A DNA stretch of 64,000 nt from a candidate division WOR-3 bacterium (GCA_037481815.1 JBBFKX010000002.1:96001-160000); one strand, 5' to 3'; positions 36,944 through 43,831 are shown, numbered from the stretch's first letter. A program made the numbers and translations. The notes: generated by a model not told the origin, from the letters alone.

Positions 36944-37873
36944 CTAATCAAAAAGTGCACTGATAGATTCTTTATTATAAACTCTTTTTATAGCGTTTGC
37001 AAAAAGTTCTGCCATCGAAAGAACTTCTATCTTTTCAATCTTCTTTTCTTCTGGAATCACAACACTATCTGAAGTGTACAGTTTATCGATTGGCGAATTT
37101 TTAAGTTTCGCAATAGCATCTCCAGAAAGTAGAGGATGTGTCACACATGCTATTATCCTTTTAGCACCATTATACTTCAAAGCTTCCGCTGCTTTTGTGA
37201 TTGTCCCGGCAGTATCGATTATATCATCAACCATCAGAACATCTTTATCCTTAACCTCACCAACAACATGCATCACTTCAGATTGGTTTGGAGAACTTCT
37301 TCTTTTGTCTATAACAGCAATCGGTAGATTGTTCAATTTTTTTGCTATATTCCTGGCTCTGTTAACTCTTCCAGCATCAGGGGAAACCACAACAGTGTTG
37401 TCAAGTTTTTCATTCTTCAAAAGATGTTCGACAAAAACTGGTGCAGAATAAAGATGATCGACTGGAACATTGAAAAAGCCCTGTATCTGTTCAGCATGAA
37501 GTTCAAGAACCATGACTCTTGAAACACCAGCTGCTGTCAGAAGGTTTGCAACGACCCTTGAACTTATTGGAACCCTTGGAGCATCCTTTTTGTCCTGTCT
37601 TGCATATCCATAATACGGGATAACTGCTGTTATCATATCCGCTGATGCTCTTCTTAAAGAGTCGATAATAAAAATCAGTTCAAGAAGATTATCCGCTGGT
37701 GGATTTGTTGATTGAATAACAAATACATGACTTCCCCTCACAGATTCATTTATCTGAACCCTTATCTCACCGTCAGAAAATTTTGTAATAAGAGAATCAA
37801 CAAGTGGAATGTTCAACTTGTTTGATATCTCTTTTGCTATTTTAGCATTCGAATTTCCTGCTATAAGTTTCAT
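36944..37873 (-). CDS. prs: Ribose-phosphate pyrophosphokinase
   Basis: FSDGEI, PYYGYARQD, VSPDAG, VDDIIDTAGT. Confidence 0.98.
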   Translation of the reverse strand: MKLIAGNSNAKIAKEISNKLNIPLVDSLITKFSDGEIRVQINESVRGSHVFVIQSTNPPADNLLELIFIIDSLRRASADMITAVIPYYGYARQDKKDAPRVPISSRVVANLLTAAGVSRVMVLELHAEQIQGFFNVPVDHLYSAPVFVEHLLKNEKLDNTVVVSPDAGRVNRARNIAKKLNNLPIAVIDKRRSSPNQSEVMHVVGEVKDKDVLMVDDIIDTAGTITKAAEALKYNGAKRIIACVTHPLLSGDAIAKLKNSPIDKLYTSDSVVIPEEKKIEKIEVLSMAELFANAIKRVYNKESISALFD

Positions 37874-37891
37874 AATAAAACTCACATTTCT

Positions 37892-37996: not shown

Positions 37997-38257
37997 TTAC
38001 TTCTTACTCACTTCCTGCTGATATTTTTCAAGAACGACTTTTTCAATCTTCTGTCTCATCTCATTGTTGATAGGATGGGCTATATCTCTATATGTCCCAT
38101 CTTTAGCCCTTCTTGAAGGCATGGAAATGAAAAGACCTTTTTTCCCATCGATAATCTTTAAACCCCTGATAACAAATGCGTTGTCAAAAGTTACATTTGC
38201 AAATGCTTTCAATTTGGGTTCATCTCTTAATGTGATTCTTACTTCGGTAATTTCCAT
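37997..38257 (-). CDS. spoVG: Septation regulator SpoVG
   Basis: MEITEVRI...KAFA.VTFD..FVI...GLFISMPS...YRDIAHPIN. Confidence 0.96.
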   Translation of the reverse strand: MEITEVRITLRDEPKLKAFANVTFDNAFVIRGLKIIDGKKGLFISMPSRRAKDGTYRDIAHPINNEMRQKIEKVVLEKYQQEVSKK

Positions 38258-39168
38258 TCTTCCTCCTGAATTTTTGTTAGTAGTTCTTTTTTTATTCTAT
38301 TTCGAGTTATCGGGGTGGTAAAAAAAATCCTGTTCCCACCGAACTCTTTTTTTAGCGAATCAAAATGTCTTTCGTTTTCAAAGATCGCGAAAATAGATGA
38401 ACCACTTCCACTCATAAGCGAAAGTAGCGGCTCATATTTTGTTATCCTTTCTTTTACATCCTTCAACAAAGGATATTTTTCAAACACAACTCTTTCAAAA
38501 ATGTTATAAAAATATTTGAAAGAACTTTTCAAATTTTTATAATCAATTTTTGAATTTATAATATTATAAGATTTTCCATCATTTGTCAAGTATTTAGATA
38601 GAAGATAGTATGCCTCTTTTGTTGAAACATGTAGATTGGGAGAGATTATAAAAATTTTAAGATTTTCAATTTCTGGTATATCAAAGAATTCGAGTTTTTC
38701 ACCTATACCTCTTCCGATTGCACTCCCTCCTTCAACAAGAAAAGGGCAATCGGCCCCGACTTTTGATGAAAGTTGCCTAAGTTCTTCATTTTGAAATGGA
38801 TAATCATAGTAAAAATTTAAAAAATTCAGGATCGAAGAGCCATCTGCACTTCCACCACCAAGACCGGCACCTGATGGAATCATTTTGTTAACTTTAAAAT
38901 GGAAATCAACCCATTCTCTTTTAGATTTGTTTAAAAAGGCCTCTTTAAAAATTTGATACGATTTGTAAACGGTGTTGTTTTCTGGATCTATCTGGCAATC
39001 ATTGTTAAAAAATTCTATCCCAAAATTTTTACTTTCATAAACTTCGATGCTATCAAAAAGATCTATCGATTGAAAAATCGTGAGAATTTCATGAAAACCA
39101 TCCTCACGCTTGTTCAACACATCAAGAAAAAGGTTTATTTTACAGAAAGATTTTACAAGGTATCTCAT
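38239..39168 (-). CDS. ispE: 4-diphosphocytidyl-2-C-methyl-D-erythritol kinase
   Basis: KINLFL....REDGFHE, IP.GAGLGGGSAD, GADCPF, MSGSGS. Confidence 0.95.
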   Translation of the reverse strand: MRYLVKSFCKINLFLDVLNKREDGFHEILTIFQSIDLFDSIEVYESKNFGIEFFNNDCQIDPENNTVYKSYQIFKEAFLNKSKREWVDFHFKVNKMIPSGAGLGGGSADGSSILNFLNFYYDYPFQNEELRQLSSKVGADCPFLVEGGSAIGRGIGEKLEFFDIPEIENLKIFIISPNLHVSTKEAYYLLSKYLTNDGKSYNIINSKIDYKNLKSSFKYFYNIFERVVFEKYPLLKDVKERITKYEPLLSLMSGSGSSIFAIFENERHFDSLKKEFGGNRIFFTTPITRNRIKKELLTKIQEEEWKLPK

Positions 39169-39896
39169 TTTTTGAAAATGTCAACTACCTCAGAGAATTC
39201 AAAAATTTTATCTGGATCTTTTTCTATCGAGTTTCCGGTTACGATAAAATCTGCTCCATTTTCAAGAATTTCAAGAGCCGTTTTACGATCCTTTATACCC
39301 CCCCCAACAAAAAGAGGTTTTGATAAAATCTTTTTCGCATTTTTAATAAACTTTAACGGAACAGTTTTTTCGGATCCACTTCCCGCTTCAAGGTAAACTA
39401 TTTTGAAATTTGATATCTCGGATAGATAAATATAGTTCAAAAAAGTTTTCATATCTTTTATAAAATTTATAGGTACCCTTTTTGCAACACTTGTTTTCCG
39501 ATCAGCCATACAGAGTATATATGATGTTGGAATGATGTTTAAAGATGATTTATAGAGGTTTTCAGCACCGTTGATATGTTCTCCAATTATATAATCAAGT
39601 TTTTTCGTGTTCAAAAGAAAGAGCAATAAAAGAAAATCTGCATTTTTTGATATCTGATAGTGAGAACCAGGGAAAATGAAAATTGGTTTTTTTGTTTTTT
39701 CTTTTATCGAAAGTATGAATCTATCAAAACCTTTGATCTTCTTATCACTCCCACCGATCAATATTCCATCAACTTTTGCACTGTTTATATTTTTTATGAT
39801 CTTTTCAAAATCTATTTTTTTAGCCGGATCTATTAGAACAAAATATCCTTTTTTGTTTTCCCTGAAAATCTTTTCTATAGGGGAAATCACTTCCAC
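39165..39896 (-). CDS. Geranylgeranylglyceryl/heptaprenylglyceryl phosphate synthase (GGGPS/PcrB family)
   Basis: LIDP.K, IGGS, FPGS..QIS..AD, PT.YIL, YLEAGSG, VGGGI, VTGN. Confidence 0.9.
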   Translation of the reverse strand: MEVISPIEKIFRENKKGYFVLIDPAKKIDFEKIIKNINSAKVDGILIGGSDKKIKGFDRFILSIKEKTKKPIFIFPGSHYQISKNADFLLLLFLLNTKKLDYIIGEHINGAENLYKSSLNIIPTSYILCMADRKTSVAKRVPINFIKDMKTFLNYIYLSEISNFKIVYLEAGSGSEKTVPLKFIKNAKKILSKPLFVGGGIKDRKTALEILENGADFIVTGNSIEKDPDKIFEFSEVVDIFKK

Positions 39897-41101
39897 AGTA
39901 ACCTCATAATTATTTTCAAAATATATTTATCTTTCATCAAACTGCCCATAAAGTTGATAACCATACCTATCGCTTTAACAGAGGATTTGAAAGAATAAAT
40001 TGTATAATAAAAATCTGACGAAAGGATCTTTTTCCCATTGAAAAGATTTATAGCTGATGTGAAGAACTTATCCCTCTCTTCATCCGACATTTCAAGCAGC
40101 ATCTCTCTTAACTGATTTTGCTTTTTAATAGAGTAACTATTGTCCTTTTCAACGAGTTCCTGATACTGGGACATCCTTTTTGCTGAAAAATCTTTCCCCT
40201 TTAAAACAGAGTTTGCAACTATCGCTGCAAAGTTCGCTGTTCTTAAAGCATTATCTATACCACCCCCCGTTATCGGGTCAGCTGCTCTTGCACTATCACC
40301 TATAACCATAACCCTATCAGAATACATTTTTGCAAGTTGATTTACACTCACACATCCCGGAAATTCTCTTAAAATTTTTGCATCGGGATAATTTTTTTGC
40401 CTGTAATCATTCAAAAGTTTGTAAGGTTTATCACAATCTATCGAAGATGTTATTCCTACTCCAAAATTCGCTTCATTTTTTCCTCTTGGGAAAACCCAGA
40501 GATAACCACCAGGTGCGATAGATGGTGTGAAATCGAAAATTATCTCTTCATCCTTTATCCTGGGATCATATATTATCTGCTGATAGCACGAATAAATATC
40601 GTTAAGATTACAAACAGAGTTTATTCCAACTTTGTATGGTAGATATGACTCTACTCCATCAGCGATTATAAGTATTTTTCCAAAATATTCTTCACCATTT
40701 TCAAGTAATACTTTCACATAATCTTTTTCTATCTTAGCATCAACGACAAAACTATTTGTTTTTATTTCAAAATTGTTCTCTTCTATAACTTTTTGGGCGA
40801 TAAACTTTTCAAACTTAGATCTGTCGATTATAAGCCCCATATCTGGAATATCAACATTCGCTTCAAGTTCTTTATACTTTACTTTCAGTTTCGTGAACCT
40901 GTTTCTTATAAAAGGAAAATCTGTTTCTTTAAAAAACTGTTTTAAAGTGTTGTTCGAAATTCCTTCAGCACAGATTATAGGTTCTCCAATAACATCATCC
41001 TTTTCAAACACTATAACCTTATAATTCTTCTCTATTTTATAAGCAGCATAAAGACCCGCAGGTCCACCACCAACAATGATCACATCATAATTTTTATCCA
41101 T
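39887..41101 (-). CDS. Geranylgeranyl reductase family FAD oxidoreductase (DGGGPL reductase-like)
   Basis: GGGPAG, CAEGIS, IDR..F, ADG..S, PGGYLWVFP, GD.A...DP.TGGGI. Confidence 0.9.
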   Translation of the reverse strand: MDKNYDVIIVGGGPAGLYAAYKIEKNYKVIVFEKDDVIGEPIICAEGISNNTLKQFFKETDFPFIRNRFTKLKVKYKELEANVDIPDMGLIIDRSKFEKFIAQKVIEENNFEIKTNSFVVDAKIEKDYVKVLLENGEEYFGKILIIADGVESYLPYKVGINSVCNLNDIYSCYQQIIYDPRIKDEEIIFDFTPSIAPGGYLWVFPRGKNEANFGVGITSSIDCDKPYKLLNDYRQKNYPDAKILREFPGCVSVNQLAKMYSDRVMVIGDSARAADPITGGGIDNALRTANFAAIVANSVLKGKDFSAKRMSQYQELVEKDNSYSIKKQNQLREMLLEMSDEERDKFFTSAINLFNGKKILSSDFYYTIYSFKSSVKAIGMVINFMGSLMKDKYILKIIMRLLWK

Positions 41102-41270
41102 TTTTACTCAACGCTCCTACTGGACAGACTTTTATACATTTATCACACTTAACACAACCTTCATTTATCTGTAACCTATCCTTATACATCACAATAACCT
41201 TAACTGGACAGACAGCAACACAACCACCACAAAGTCCACATTTCTCTTTTTCGACTTTTATATATTCCAT
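41094..41270 (-). CDS. 2x[4Fe-4S] ferredoxin, 58 aa (not in ORF track)
   Basis: MEYIKVEKEKCGLCGGCVAVCPVKVIVMYKDRLQINEGCVKCDKCIKVCPVGALSKNG; two CxxCxxCxxxCP motifs. Confidence 0.93.
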   Translation of the reverse strand: MEYIKVEKEKCGLCGGCVAVCPVKVIVMYKDRLQINEGCVKCDKCIKVCPVGALSKNG

Positions 41271-41272
41271 AT

Positions 41273-43831
41273 CTACTCCAAAATTATCTTTTTCAAATTT
41301 TCTAACATCTTTTCATCAAACTCTTTAAAAACAGAACTCCCCGATGCAAGATCTTTTCTTCCACCACCTTTACCTTTTAAGATCTGATTGATTCTCTCAA
41401 TGATCTTTTTTGAATCTATATCTGTGTTTGAACTAAAAACAATATAGTTTATCTTTTCCTGATCCTTACTTAAAATTGTTCCAAACACCTTTTTTTCTTT
41501 ACTTTTAATATTATCCATAATTTTTTTCAGGATGTCAATAGTATAACCTTCTAACAATCCAAAAACAAAAAGGTTATCACCGTTTTTTTTACCCTCAGAT
41601 ATCAATCGATCAGTTATTATGTTAATCTCATAATTCAAATAATTTTCATTCTCTTTTTTCAATCTGTTATTTTCTTCAACGATTTTTTCAAATCTTTTTT
41701 CGAGTTCATCAAAATCTTTGATTTTATGTTTCAAAATAAACATTTCTATTCTGTCGACCAACTCCTGATAACTCTTTAAAGCGTATAGAGAAGTAAGTGC
41801 TTCTATCCTTCTGATACCTGTTGCGACAGATTCCTCTTTAACTATTCTAAAAAGCCCGATCTCTCCAGTTCTTTCAACATGTGTTCCACCACACAATTCT
41901 TTTGAAACATTTTTTATGGAAACAACTCTAACTTCTCTGTCATACTTTTCGTTGAAAAAGGCCAGAGCACCTTCTTTTATCGCTTCTTCGTATGGTAGAA
42001 TCCTCTTTTCAACAGGGATGTTCTGGGATATTATTTCGTTGACACTATTTTCTATCAACTCTTTCTCTTCATCAGTCAATGGTTTAAAATGTAAAAAATC
42101 AAACCTGAATCTATCAAAAGATACAAAAGAACCTTCCTGTTTTACATGTTCACCAAGAACCTTCCTTAAAACAGAATGTAAAATGTGTGTCGCTGTATGG
42201 TTTCTCTGTATGAGATACCTTCTTTTCATGTCAACCTTTTGTCTATAGGTTTTCCCTTTTTCAAATTCACCTGCAATCTTTTTTCCTATAAGCATATTTC
42301 CAAGAGGTGATCTGACACAGTTTAAAACCTCAAACTCAAATTGATCAGAAAAAACTGTCCCCGTATCTGCGATCTGTCCACCGGACTCAGCATAAAATGG
42401 TGTTTCCTTCATCAAAAGTTCATACAAAGAATCTCCCAGATCTCTATACCTTAAAATGTATGATTCATTTTCAAGTGTTTCATATCCAACGAACTTTGAA
42501 ACATCATCTTCAAAAACGACAAAATCTTTTTTGTCTGAATCTGTAAACACCTTATCCTTCCTCGATCTTTCTCTTGCCTCATCAAGTAGTTTTTCAAATC
42601 CATTCTGATCGATTTCAAGGTTATCCTCTTCAGCCATCTGTTTTATAAGATCTACAGGAAATCCAAATGTGTCGTATAGTAAAAATAACGTTTTCCCATC
42701 AACAGTGCTACCTTTCAGATTTTTCTTATAATCGTTGTAAAGTTGCATACCCTGACCTATAGTTCTTAAAAACCTCTCCTCTTCCGACTTTATTATATTT
42801 TTAACTTTATCAACTGTTTGCAAAAGATAAGGATATTGAGTTTTCATTATTTTAACAACCTCAGATGTAAGATCGTAAAGAAAAGGTTTCTCTATCCCCA
42901 TTTTGAATCCAAACCTAACAGCTCTTCTTAGAACTCTTCTTATAACATATCCTCTTCCCTCATTTTCAGGTATGACACCGTCTGATATCGAGAATGTCAG
43001 GGCTCTTATATGATCTGCTATCGAATTTATCTCTTTTTTATACTTTTCATAATCAAGATTGTATTTTTCAAAAAGCGTATTTATGATTGGCATGAAGAGA
43101 TCTGTTTCGAAGATCGACTTTTTATCCTGCATTACGGCTGCAAGTCGTTCAAGTCCCATTCCAGTATCAACTCCTTTATTTTTAAGCAAAGTTCTGTTTC
43201 CCGAACTATCCTGGTTGAATTGCGGGAAAACTATGTTCCAGATTTCAACATACCTTTTACAATCGTTTTCTATTGAACAGGGATGTTTGTTTTCAAGTTC
43301 TTTTCCAAAATCATAAAATATTTCGGTTGAAGGCCCGCATGCACCAGTGCCTCCAGCTGGTCCCCAGAAGTTGGTCCTGTCATCCATCTTGATTATCCTT
43401 TCAACTGGGATTTTTATAATATCCTTCCATATCCTGTACGCCTCACTGTCATCCTTATGAACCGTTACATACAGTTTATCTTTGTCTATCTTCAACTCAT
43501 CAGTTAAAAATTCCCATCCCCATTTTATCGCTTCAAGTTGGAAGTAATCGTTAAAGGAAAAATTCCCAAGCATTTCAAAAAAAGTATCATGAAAAGGTGA
43601 AATCCCAACCTCTTCAAGATCAACCACCCTTAAACACTTTTGAATCGATGTGGCTCTTTTAAAATCAAAATCAACAAGACCTGCAAACATCGGTTTAAAT
43701 TGCACCATTCCCGCAACAGTGAAAAGAAGTGTGGGATCGTTTTCAGGTATCAAAGATGACGACTCAAACACTCTATGTTCTCTATCCTTAAAAAATTTGA
43801 TAAATTTTTCCCTTAAAATCTGACTCTCCAC
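41273..43831 (-). CDS. alaS: Alanine--tRNA ligase
   Basis: DPTLLF..AGM.QFK, FFEMLGNFS, DTGMGLER, NHTATH, ELCGGTH. Confidence 0.98.
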   Translation of the reverse strand: MESQILREKFIKFFKDREHRVFESSSLIPENDPTLLFTVAGMVQFKPMFAGLVDFDFKRATSIQKCLRVVDLEEVGISPFHDTFFEMLGNFSFNDYFQLEAIKWGWEFLTDELKIDKDKLYVTVHKDDSEAYRIWKDIIKIPVERIIKMDDRTNFWGPAGGTGACGPSTEIFYDFGKELENKHPCSIENDCKRYVEIWNIVFPQFNQDSSGNRTLLKNKGVDTGMGLERLAAVMQDKKSIFETDLFMPIINTLFEKYNLDYEKYKKEINSIADHIRALTFSISDGVIPENEGRGYVIRRVLRRAVRFGFKMGIEKPFLYDLTSEVVKIMKTQYPYLLQTVDKVKNIIKSEEERFLRTIGQGMQLYNDYKKNLKGSTVDGKTLFLLYDTFGFPVDLIKQMAEEDNLEIDQNGFEKLLDEARERSRKDKVFTDSDKKDFVVFEDDVSKFVGYETLENESYILRYRDLGDSLYELLMKETPFYAESGGQIADTGTVFSDQFEFEVLNCVRSPLGNMLIGKKIAGEFEKGKTYRQKVDMKRRYLIQRNHTATHILHSVLRKVLGEHVKQEGSFVSFDRFRFDFLHFKPLTDEEKELIENSVNEIISQNIPVEKRILPYEEAIKEGALAFFNEKYDREVRVVSIKNVSKELCGGTHVERTGEIGLFRIVKEESVATGIRRIEALTSLYALKSYQELVDRIEMFILKHKIKDFDELEKRFEKIVEENNRLKKENENYLNYEINIITDRLISEGKKNGDNLFVFGLLEGYTIDILKKIMDNIKSKEKKVFGTILSKDQEKINYIVFSSNTDIDSKKIIERINQILKGKGGGRKDLASGSSVFKEFDEKMLENLKKIILE

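Follow-up and report, generated by a model that had tools for sequence, protein, structure and literature searches.

An archaeal-type ether lipid gene module with a ferredoxin gene, and a predicted glycerol-1-phosphate lipid pathway, in a family of candidate division WOR-3 bacteria

This study concerns a stretch of 64,000 nucleotides (nt) from a candidate division WOR-3 bacterium (GCA_037481815.1 JBBFKX010000002.1:96001-160000), here called the window, and within it a cluster of four overlapping genes at 38239..41270 encoding a ferredoxin, a geranylgeranyl reductase (GGR), a geranylgeranylglyceryl phosphate synthase (GGGPS) and IspE. The window is contig C2 96001-160000 of a host genome of 1.58 Mb in 20 contigs that is rated 95% complete. 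Together with unlinked genes elsewhere in that genome, the ferredoxin, GGR and GGGPS genes are predicted to form a complete route to saturated isoprenoid ether phospholipids built on sn-glycerol-1-phosphate (G1P), and on balance we favor the reading that such lipids make up a substantial part of the membrane. They are probably substantial and not a trace component because the host's family has a G1P dehydrogenase (G1PDH) but no recognizable route to sn-glycerol-3-phosphate (G3P). The family was represented by 14 genomes in five genera (1.6-2.1 Mb), within a phylum sample of 121 genomes that includes the host.

All four genes lie on the (-) strand. The first encodes a 2x[4Fe-4S] ferredoxin of 58 amino acids (aa) (41094-41270; Fer4 44 bits, Fer4_7 42 bits) and is followed by the genes for a GGR of the type that reduces digeranylgeranylglycerophospholipids (DGGGPL) (39887-41101, 404 aa), for a GGGPS of the PcrB family (39165-39896, 243 aa) and for IspE, the kinase of diphosphocytidyl-methylerythritol in the methylerythritol phosphate (MEP) pathway of isoprenoid synthesis (38239-39168, 309 aa). 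According to the listing of open reading frames (ORFs), ferredoxin and GGR genes overlap by 8 nt, GGR and GGGPS by 10 nt, and GGGPS and IspE by 4 nt. These four overlapping genes had been proposed in an earlier sequence-only reading of the window, and their coordinates and family assignments were borne out by the ORFs and by Pfam and NCBIfam models.

Gene order was compared by tblastn with the window proteins in 10 of the 13 family genomes other than the host's and in 10 loci of other families, these related loci coming from a search built on a close 9-sequence alignment whose peptide patterns bias what turned up. The order GGR-GGGPS-ispE-spoVG-prs was kept in all 10 family loci. GGR adjoins GGGPS in each of these and in 4 of the 10 non-family loci, and ispE adjoins GGGPS in none of the latter, lying about 3 kb off in locus L042. 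Because ferredoxin-GGR-GGGPS is kept in the family and ispE adjoins it in 0/10 other loci, the conserved functional module is ferredoxin-GGR-GGGPS. The sequence-only reading had counted all four genes as one lipid cluster; the first three hold, but IspE (TIGR00154, 193.1 bits; cut-off 138.7) is probably a translationally coupled neighbor and not a dedicated pathway member. Its adjacency probably arises since the module sits before an ispE-spoVG-prs-L25-pth string, and the housekeeping string of ispE is widely conserved in bacteria. In families f8, f22 and f25 (loci L040, L043 and L048), GGR-GGGPS is followed by a gene for an HD-domain protein, a neighbor conserved in all three, and then by rho.

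The GGGPS matched PF01884 (PcrB) with 126.3 bits (cut-off 23.9) and TIGR01768 with 142.8 bits (cut-off 113.25). Against solved group II enzymes (6nke, 4jej, 6jo3) it scored 112-120 bits (92-120 bits with 4mm1 included), compared with 55 bits for the PcrB structures 3vzx and 1viz and 47 bits for the group I enzyme of A. fulgidus, 2f6u. Judged by these scores it is a group II enzyme, which settles the choice between group I PcrB and group II that had been posed for it. The glycine-rich motifs GSG and GGG, together with a YLEAGSG stretch, were kept in two GGGPS alignments; these phosphate-binding motifs presumably take part in G1P binding. In a tree of 115 rows, built without group I sequences, the 14 rows of the host's family came together in one clade with support 99, set on a long stem. 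This clade fell outside a bacterial clade that joins the other families of the phylum to Flavobacterium, Marinimicrobia, Cloacimonadota, Poribacteria and Latescibacterota, and also outside an archaeal clade of Thermoplasmatota, Asgard archaea and Methanobacteriota.

The GGR scored above the cut-offs of TIGR02032 (173.2 bits; cut-off 158.8) and of GGR_cat PF22578 (63.1 bits; cut-off 27), and its best solved relative was the Thermoplasma DGGGPL reductase 3oz2 (139.7 bits). The YxWxFP motif claimed for it earlier is indeed present as YLWVFP, with GYLWVFP aligned to GYIWVFP of 3oz2, and the cysteine motif likewise aligned (piiCAEG vs pvrCGEG); we take the active-site cysteine and the YxWxFP motif to have functional roles in GGRs. 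The question had also been raised whether the enzyme groups with menaquinone or other reductases, and it grouped with the DGGGPL reductases, scoring 161.7 bits against the DGGGPL-reductase model NF041160, whereas the MenJ model gave 47.5 bits and that for BchP/ChlP 65.8 bits. In a tree of 55 rows the host's family again formed its own clade (support 100, stem 1.36), and GGRs from other families of the phylum were placed elsewhere; the closest named sequences beyond the family were Archaeoglobus and Methanimicrococcus reductases and homologues from the group of Fibrobacteres-Chlorobi-Bacteroidetes (FCB), intermixed. Both trees were built with a quick method of limited reliability on long branches, and an unusual amino-acid composition was flagged. 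The long stems of the family's GGGPS and GGR could reflect faster evolution, low G+C or replacement by transfer.

An alternative is that the polyprenyl substrate of GGR and ferredoxin is a different one, for example the side chain of a quinone, a polyprenol or a pigment, and that the adjacency to GGGPS has no functional meaning. Archaea have multiple GGR paralogues, which have been linked to other terpenoids (PMC10821996), and the window GGR stays well below the equivalog cut-off of the DGGGPL-reductase model (161.7/780 bits). This explanation is nevertheless very unlikely given the adjacency of GGR and GGGPS both in the family and in other loci, and given that the MenJ and BchP models scored far below those for DGGGPL reductases. 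Moreover, the window GGR is the sole GGR-family gene above cut-off in the genome, and no quinone prenyltransferase of the MenA or UbiA type was recognizable there (three UbiA-family genes, the best scoring 33 bits against a MenA cut-off of 277).

The role proposed here for the ferredoxin is that of electron donor to GGR. Of the family loci, 9 could be assessed for the ferredoxin, and all 9 have a homologue. In 8 it lies directly upstream of GGR, and in the other one a typA-like gene stands between the two; in the tenth locus the contig ends inside GGR. No ferredoxin gene was found next to the module in the 10 non-family loci. A Latescibacteria protein of 487 aa, P0141, carries a 2x[4Fe-4S] ferredoxin domain fused to the N-terminus of a GGR, so that its domain order equals the gene order in the window, and the window ferredoxin is 44% identical to this domain over 50 aa. 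The gene overlap, the conservation in the family and this fusion together form the basis for linking ferredoxin and GGR, and the fusion also supports the idea that FCB-related bacteria have GGRs that depend on a ferredoxin. A search for longer fused forms over 708-2020 aa found none, which is weak evidence given that P0141 itself came from the normal-length search. The GGR of Methanosarcina acetivorans reportedly needs a ferredoxin. Two congeneric loci differ in detail: in L030 (genome G014) the ferredoxin-GGR pair occurs twice in tandem with identical scores, perhaps a true duplication or else an assembly repeat, and in L029 (genome G007) the GGR match is split over two frames near the C-terminus, perhaps by a frameshift or a sequencing error.

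The sequence-only reading had pointed out that the window lacks a G1PDH, a second prenyltransferase and a polyprenyl synthase, and the pathway is indeed incomplete there; all three were located elsewhere in the genome. In the proposed route, G1PDH would first convert dihydroxyacetone phosphate to G1P. The candidate for this step (L004:913-1992, 359 aa) is unlinked to the module and scored 289 bits against the EgsA model NF002022, 166 bits against the M. jannaschii G1PDH 4rgq and 185 bits against 3ce9, compared with at most 66 bits for true glycerol dehydrogenases. The group II GGGPS would then form the first prenyl ether bond, and a UbiA-family enzyme resembling digeranylgeranylglyceryl phosphate synthase (DGGGPS) would form the second. 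This DGGGPS-like enzyme (L001:1423-2268, 281 aa) scored 216 bits against NF009523 and 174 bits against NF009521, and 128 bits against the M. jannaschii DGGGPS 6m31, with the next solved chain at 44 bits; at E<=1e-35, the matches of NF009523 in 14 control genomes were confined to the 4 archaea. Its gene overlaps uppP, the gene for undecaprenyl-diphosphatase, by 4 nt and is preceded by an SPFH/stomatin-like ORF, a label taken from the translation (L001:632-2268, on contig C1 and outside the window).

For activation with CTP, CdsA would act in place of CarS. The sole PF01864 (CarS) match in the genome, at 19.9 bits, is below the cut-off of 22 and lies inside CdsA, which is encoded in a uppS-cdsA-dxr cluster; bacterial CdsA can substitute for CarS according to the accessible part of a study on Cloacimonetes (PMC7852524). 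A single CDP-alcohol transferase would then add the head group. It resembles archaetidylinositol-phosphate synthase (156 bits) more than bacterial phosphatidylinositol-phosphate synthase (128 bits) or PgsA (37 bits), and its gene adjoins that for inositol-3-phosphate synthase. Both CdsA and this transferase would have to accept ether substrates. Finally, GGR would saturate the chains with electrons from the adjacent ferredoxin. The prenyl units would be supplied by the MEP pathway, which is supported by the presence of IspH and of Dxr, the latter read from its translation. The genome-wide search proposed earlier thus succeeded for G1PDH and the DGGGPS-like enzyme, but it gave no CarS above cut-off and a prenyl synthase of the farnesyl diphosphate synthase (FPPS) type instead of one for geranylgeranyl diphosphate (GGPP). 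Two further features of these loci were seen. The third UbiA-family protein (301 aa, L003:1390-2295, likewise on contig C1), whose sole match is to a DGGGPS-related model at 31.8 bits, is encoded by a gene that overlaps one for a 441-aa FAD-dependent oxidoreductase (L003:2258-3583), forming a putative prenyltransferase-reductase pair. Also, lipid and isoprenoid genes are interleaved: plsC is flanked by cmk and ispH, and cdsA by uppS and dxr.

The supply of G3P sets the family apart from the rest of the phylum. The GpsA C-terminal domain was found in 0 of 14 family genomes compared with 103 of 107 other phylum genomes, the four misses being 73-93% complete. GlpK, glycerophosphodiesterase (GDPD) and the GlpD C-terminal domain (DAO_C) were each found in 0/14 family genomes as well, and a search of the same genomes for the GlpT family gave just generic matches to major facilitator superfamily transporters (<=42 bits vs a cut-off of 408). 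Two weak matches to the GpsA N-terminal domain in the host genome proved to be nucleotide-sugar dehydrogenases. In the host, der-plsY is followed directly by a regulator gene, and in many other phylum genomes gpsA comes after plsY. The head-group enzymes show a similar picture. In the five family genera checked, each genome has one CDP-alcohol transferase above cut-off, which is archaetidylinositol-phosphate synthase-like (139-158 bits), and no PgsA-like or PssA-like transferase was found; a single comparator genome with GpsA has five CDP-alcohol transferases, including PgsA-like and PssA enzymes.

The pathway inventory, like the gene identities, conservation and synteny, is a computed result, but several observations weigh against a membrane rich in archaeal-type lipids. 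The curated equivalog cut-offs were missed by GGGPS (TIGR01769, 151.9/161.55 bits; NF003198, 201.2/247; NF003202, 140.6/353), by GGR (NF041080, 123/580 bits, in addition to NF041160), by G1PDH (NF002022, 289 bits vs 413), by the DGGGPS-like enzyme (216 bits vs 269) and by the inositol transferase (156 bits vs 180). Because of these shortfalls GGGPS and GGR are, on the scores, divergent members of their families, and their long stems may mean altered specificity. The prenyl synthase is a second difficulty. Exactly one trans-prenyl diphosphate synthase is present in each of the 14 family genomes, and all 14 fit the FPPsyn model better than CrtE; that of the host exceeds the cut-off of FPPsyn (295.1 bits; >275) and falls short of that for CrtE (251.6 bits; <460), and in all 14 a tyrosine stands five residues before the DDxxxxD motif (DDLPxMD). 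We take a tyrosine at that position to be the bacterial FPPS pattern of the E. coli IspA type, and the supply of GGPP is therefore not explained. The ether lipids could thus have C20 chains, if the enzyme is promiscuous, or C15 chains.

A third group of observations concerns the bacterial lipid pathway, which is intact: the host has an rpmF-plsX-fabH-fabD-fabG-fabF cluster, two PlsY copies and PlsC, and both PlsX and PlsY are present in 14/14 family genomes. The G3P pocket of Aquifex aeolicus PlsY comprises Ser35, Arg45, Lys104, Asn180, Ser142 and His177 in the accessible text of its description (PMC5700162), and the main family PlsY keeps five of these six residues, with threonine in place of Ser142. 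This canonical pocket suggests that G3P is still used, from a source not recognized here; the negative result for the G3P route covers GpsA, GlpK, GlpD, GDPD and GlpT, and a Ugp-type ABC transporter was not searched for.

These observations lend some weight to a reading in which the module makes a minor, specialized ether lipid and the bulk of the membrane is diacyl-G3P lipid, with G3P obtained by uptake or from an enzyme that the models fail to recognize. Intact type II fatty acid synthesis (FAS II), PlsX, PlsY and PlsC, the canonical pocket of the main PlsY and the FPPS-like character of the sole prenyl synthase would all agree with it, and genomes as small as those of this family would fit scavenging. 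There are precedents in the heptaprenylglyceryl phosphate made by Bacillus PcrB and in unexplained Bacteroidetes GGGPS products, and the part of PMC7888582 that was available calls the role of GGGPS products in bacteria unknown. However, five independent G3P-related families are missing in 14/14 family genomes, GpsA being present in nearly all others of the phylum, and no PgsA-like or PssA-like transferase turned up in the five family genera checked. In addition, G1PDH, GGGPS, the DGGGPS-like enzyme and GGR are retained in 14/14 genomes, and a ferredoxin was added in the family. A minor ether lipid is for these reasons considered rather doubtful, and substantial G1P-based ether lipids remain the preferred reading. 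The interpretation given with the sequence-only reading, of saturated isoprenoid ether lipids from MEP-derived precursors in a mixed membrane, is also supported as a prediction from genes, each of the computational checks suggested with it having turned out in its favor.

A bolder proposal is that the family lost GpsA together with PgsA and PssA, kept G1PDH, and now builds all its glycerolipids on sn-G1P with inositol-phosphate heads, possibly including acyl lipids made by PlsY and PlsC. It is unlikely on present evidence. The position of Ser142 in PlsY bears on it, since this residue provides one of two side chains that contact the 2-OH stereocenter. It is threonine in 6/6 main PlsY proteins from the family and serine in 15/15 from other families, and the position is one of only four family-specific PlsY columns. 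The change to threonine might mark an adaptation of the enzyme to the opposite enantiomer, but the position varies in general among 7,288 homologues (Ser 52.6%, Ala 33%, Gly 5.2%), and the hint is weak at best. A second PlsY paralogue (L009:1420-2058, on contig C3 and outside the window) differs at many G3P-pocket positions (S35K, R45I, S142G, H177S, N180H, R183S) and, judging from these residues, probably does not act as a canonical G3P acyltransferase. Additional PlsY copies of this kind are common in the phylum, and copy number was considered as a family marker and rejected, as it varies between 1 and 7 among phylum genomes.

The module is embedded in bacterial genes on both sides, and its three genes would be transcribed with alaS upstream and ispE-spoVG-prs downstream. 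The alaS gene (41273-43831, (-) strand, 852 aa) ends 2 nt before the start of the ferredoxin gene; its identity was inferred by tblastn to ORFs in loci L045-L047 that Pfam names tRNA-synt_2c, and it adjoins the module in 3 of the 10 non-family loci. On the other side, IspE overlaps spoVG (37997-38257, (-) strand; PF04026 118 bits, NF009749 118.4 bits) by 19 nt in the ORF listing, and spoVG is followed by prs (36944-37885, (-) strand), L25, pth, S6, ssb, S18 and L9, all of these from prs onward being named from their translations and not by profile scan. A scan for transcription signals was uninformative, with 56 promoter-like sites vs 46.6 +/- 5.4 in shuffles and terminator-like matches lying inside genes. 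No RNA data set was listed among those that contain this DNA.

This setting also bears on whether the archaeal-type genes could derive from archaeal contamination or a chimeric assembly, as might be thought because, among solved structures, those most similar to GGGPS and GGR come from Thermoplasma. The chance of this is negligible. The cluster overlaps with bacterial housekeeping genes, which flank it on both sides, the same order recurs in 10/10 relatives, and the region has a uniform G+C of about 31-33%. In an independent hot-spring run (X2), one contig covers 37900-41400 with 4 substitutions and 0 gaps. Because this contig spans the cluster and the gene order recurs in related genomes, the cluster is not an assembly artefact.

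Across the phylum sample, GGGPS was found in 80/121 genomes, the DGGGPS-like enzyme (E<=1e-35) in 78/121 and G1PDH (E<=1e-20) in 44/121, and each of the three in 14/14 family genomes. GGGPS and the DGGGPS-like enzyme are mostly present or missing together, by family. G1PDH, GGGPS, the DGGGPS-like enzyme and GpsA occur together in families f3, f4, f6, f7, f9, f14, f18, f21, f22, f24, f25, f27 and f28, among others; these are the genes that a heterochiral mixed membrane would need. Both prenyltransferases occur without G1PDH in families f8, f13, f16 and f17, as in the published Cloacimonetes.

As a class, archaeal-type lipid genes in Cloacimonetes and the FCB group are already known. In E. coli, archaeal-type lipids were produced by GGGPS and DGGGPS from Cloacimonetes, and the available text of that study describes GGRs close to those of Euryarchaeota and genomes without egsA/araM and without CarS (Villanueva et al., ISME J 2021, PMC7852524). 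The host resembles Candidatus Cloacimonetes, as described there, in being FCB-related and in having a group II GGGPS, a DGGGPS, a Euryarchaeota-like GGR, the MEP pathway, bacterial CdsA without CarS and a retained fatty-acid pathway, and a mixed membrane was proposed for that group as well. However, the same text suggests a G3P backbone for metagenome-assembled genomes (MAGs) of Cloacimonetes that have no egsA/araM, whereas in the host's family G1PDH is present and no G3P-forming enzymes were found. There are further differences from that description: the Cloacimonetes MAGs have two polyprenyl synthases and the family genomes one, phosphatidylglycerol enzymes are invoked there for head groups and here there is only an inositol-phosphate-type transferase, and the ferredoxin gene coupled to GGR is a feature of the host's family. 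The predicted pairing of a GGR with a small ferredoxin resembles the archaeal case of Methanosarcina acetivorans (Isobe et al. 2014, by its title), in which the ferredoxin is reportedly required to saturate archaeal lipids fully.

Other bacterial enzymes provide partial parallels. Flavobacterium johnsoniae 4jej is likewise a bacterial group II GGGPS (114 bits to the window protein), and four-isoprene ether lipids of unknown biological role are reported for Bacteroidetes group II GGGPS in the accessible part of PMC7888582. Unlike the Flavobacterium enzyme, that of the host's family belongs to its own long-stemmed clade, outside the clade of Flavobacterium and the rest of the phylum. Bacillus subtilis AraM and PcrB, in the portions of PMC5059525 and PMC6431249 available, offer another likeness in that a bacterial G1P dehydrogenase feeds a PcrB-family prenyltransferase. 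However, that PcrB belongs to group I and uses a C35 chain, B. subtilis has no DGGGPS or GGR, and GpsA is kept there, as matches in the B. subtilis control genome confirm. Coleman et al. (PMC6431249), in the part that could be consulted, give GGGPS and DGGGPS in 12/12 FCB phyla but report G1PDH from just Fibrobacteres and Cloacimonetes; their Table 1 includes a row for WOR-3, the entries of which were not readable. In open-access text no paper was found on a bacterial lineage with G1PDH and without a G3P-forming enzyme, and the presence of G1PDH with GpsA, GlpK, GlpD, glycerophosphodiesterase and GlpT missing in 14/14 family genomes looks unreported. What appears to be new is a predicted complete archaeal-type pathway across a whole family, with G1PDH and a ferredoxin-coupled reductase, where neither a supply of G3P nor a head-group enzyme that depends on it was detected.

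The lipid divide separates archaeal membranes of G1P-linked isoprenoid ethers from bacterial membranes of G3P-linked acyl esters and has a central place in models of how early cells evolved, and we know of no natural organism in which a mixed or "crossed" membrane has been established. The host's family has the reverse configuration of the published Cloacimonetes candidates, which have no G1P source, and related families of the phylum keep both dehydrogenases. Together they form a natural comparative series for backbone stereochemistry and mixed membranes, one that also bears on the substrate tolerance of PlsY, CdsA and head-group transferases. Near-identical DNA occurs in metagenomes from hot springs and elsewhere, and material for lipidomics may therefore be obtainable. 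If the bolder proposal were true, a bacterial family would have crossed the lipid divide at the backbone.

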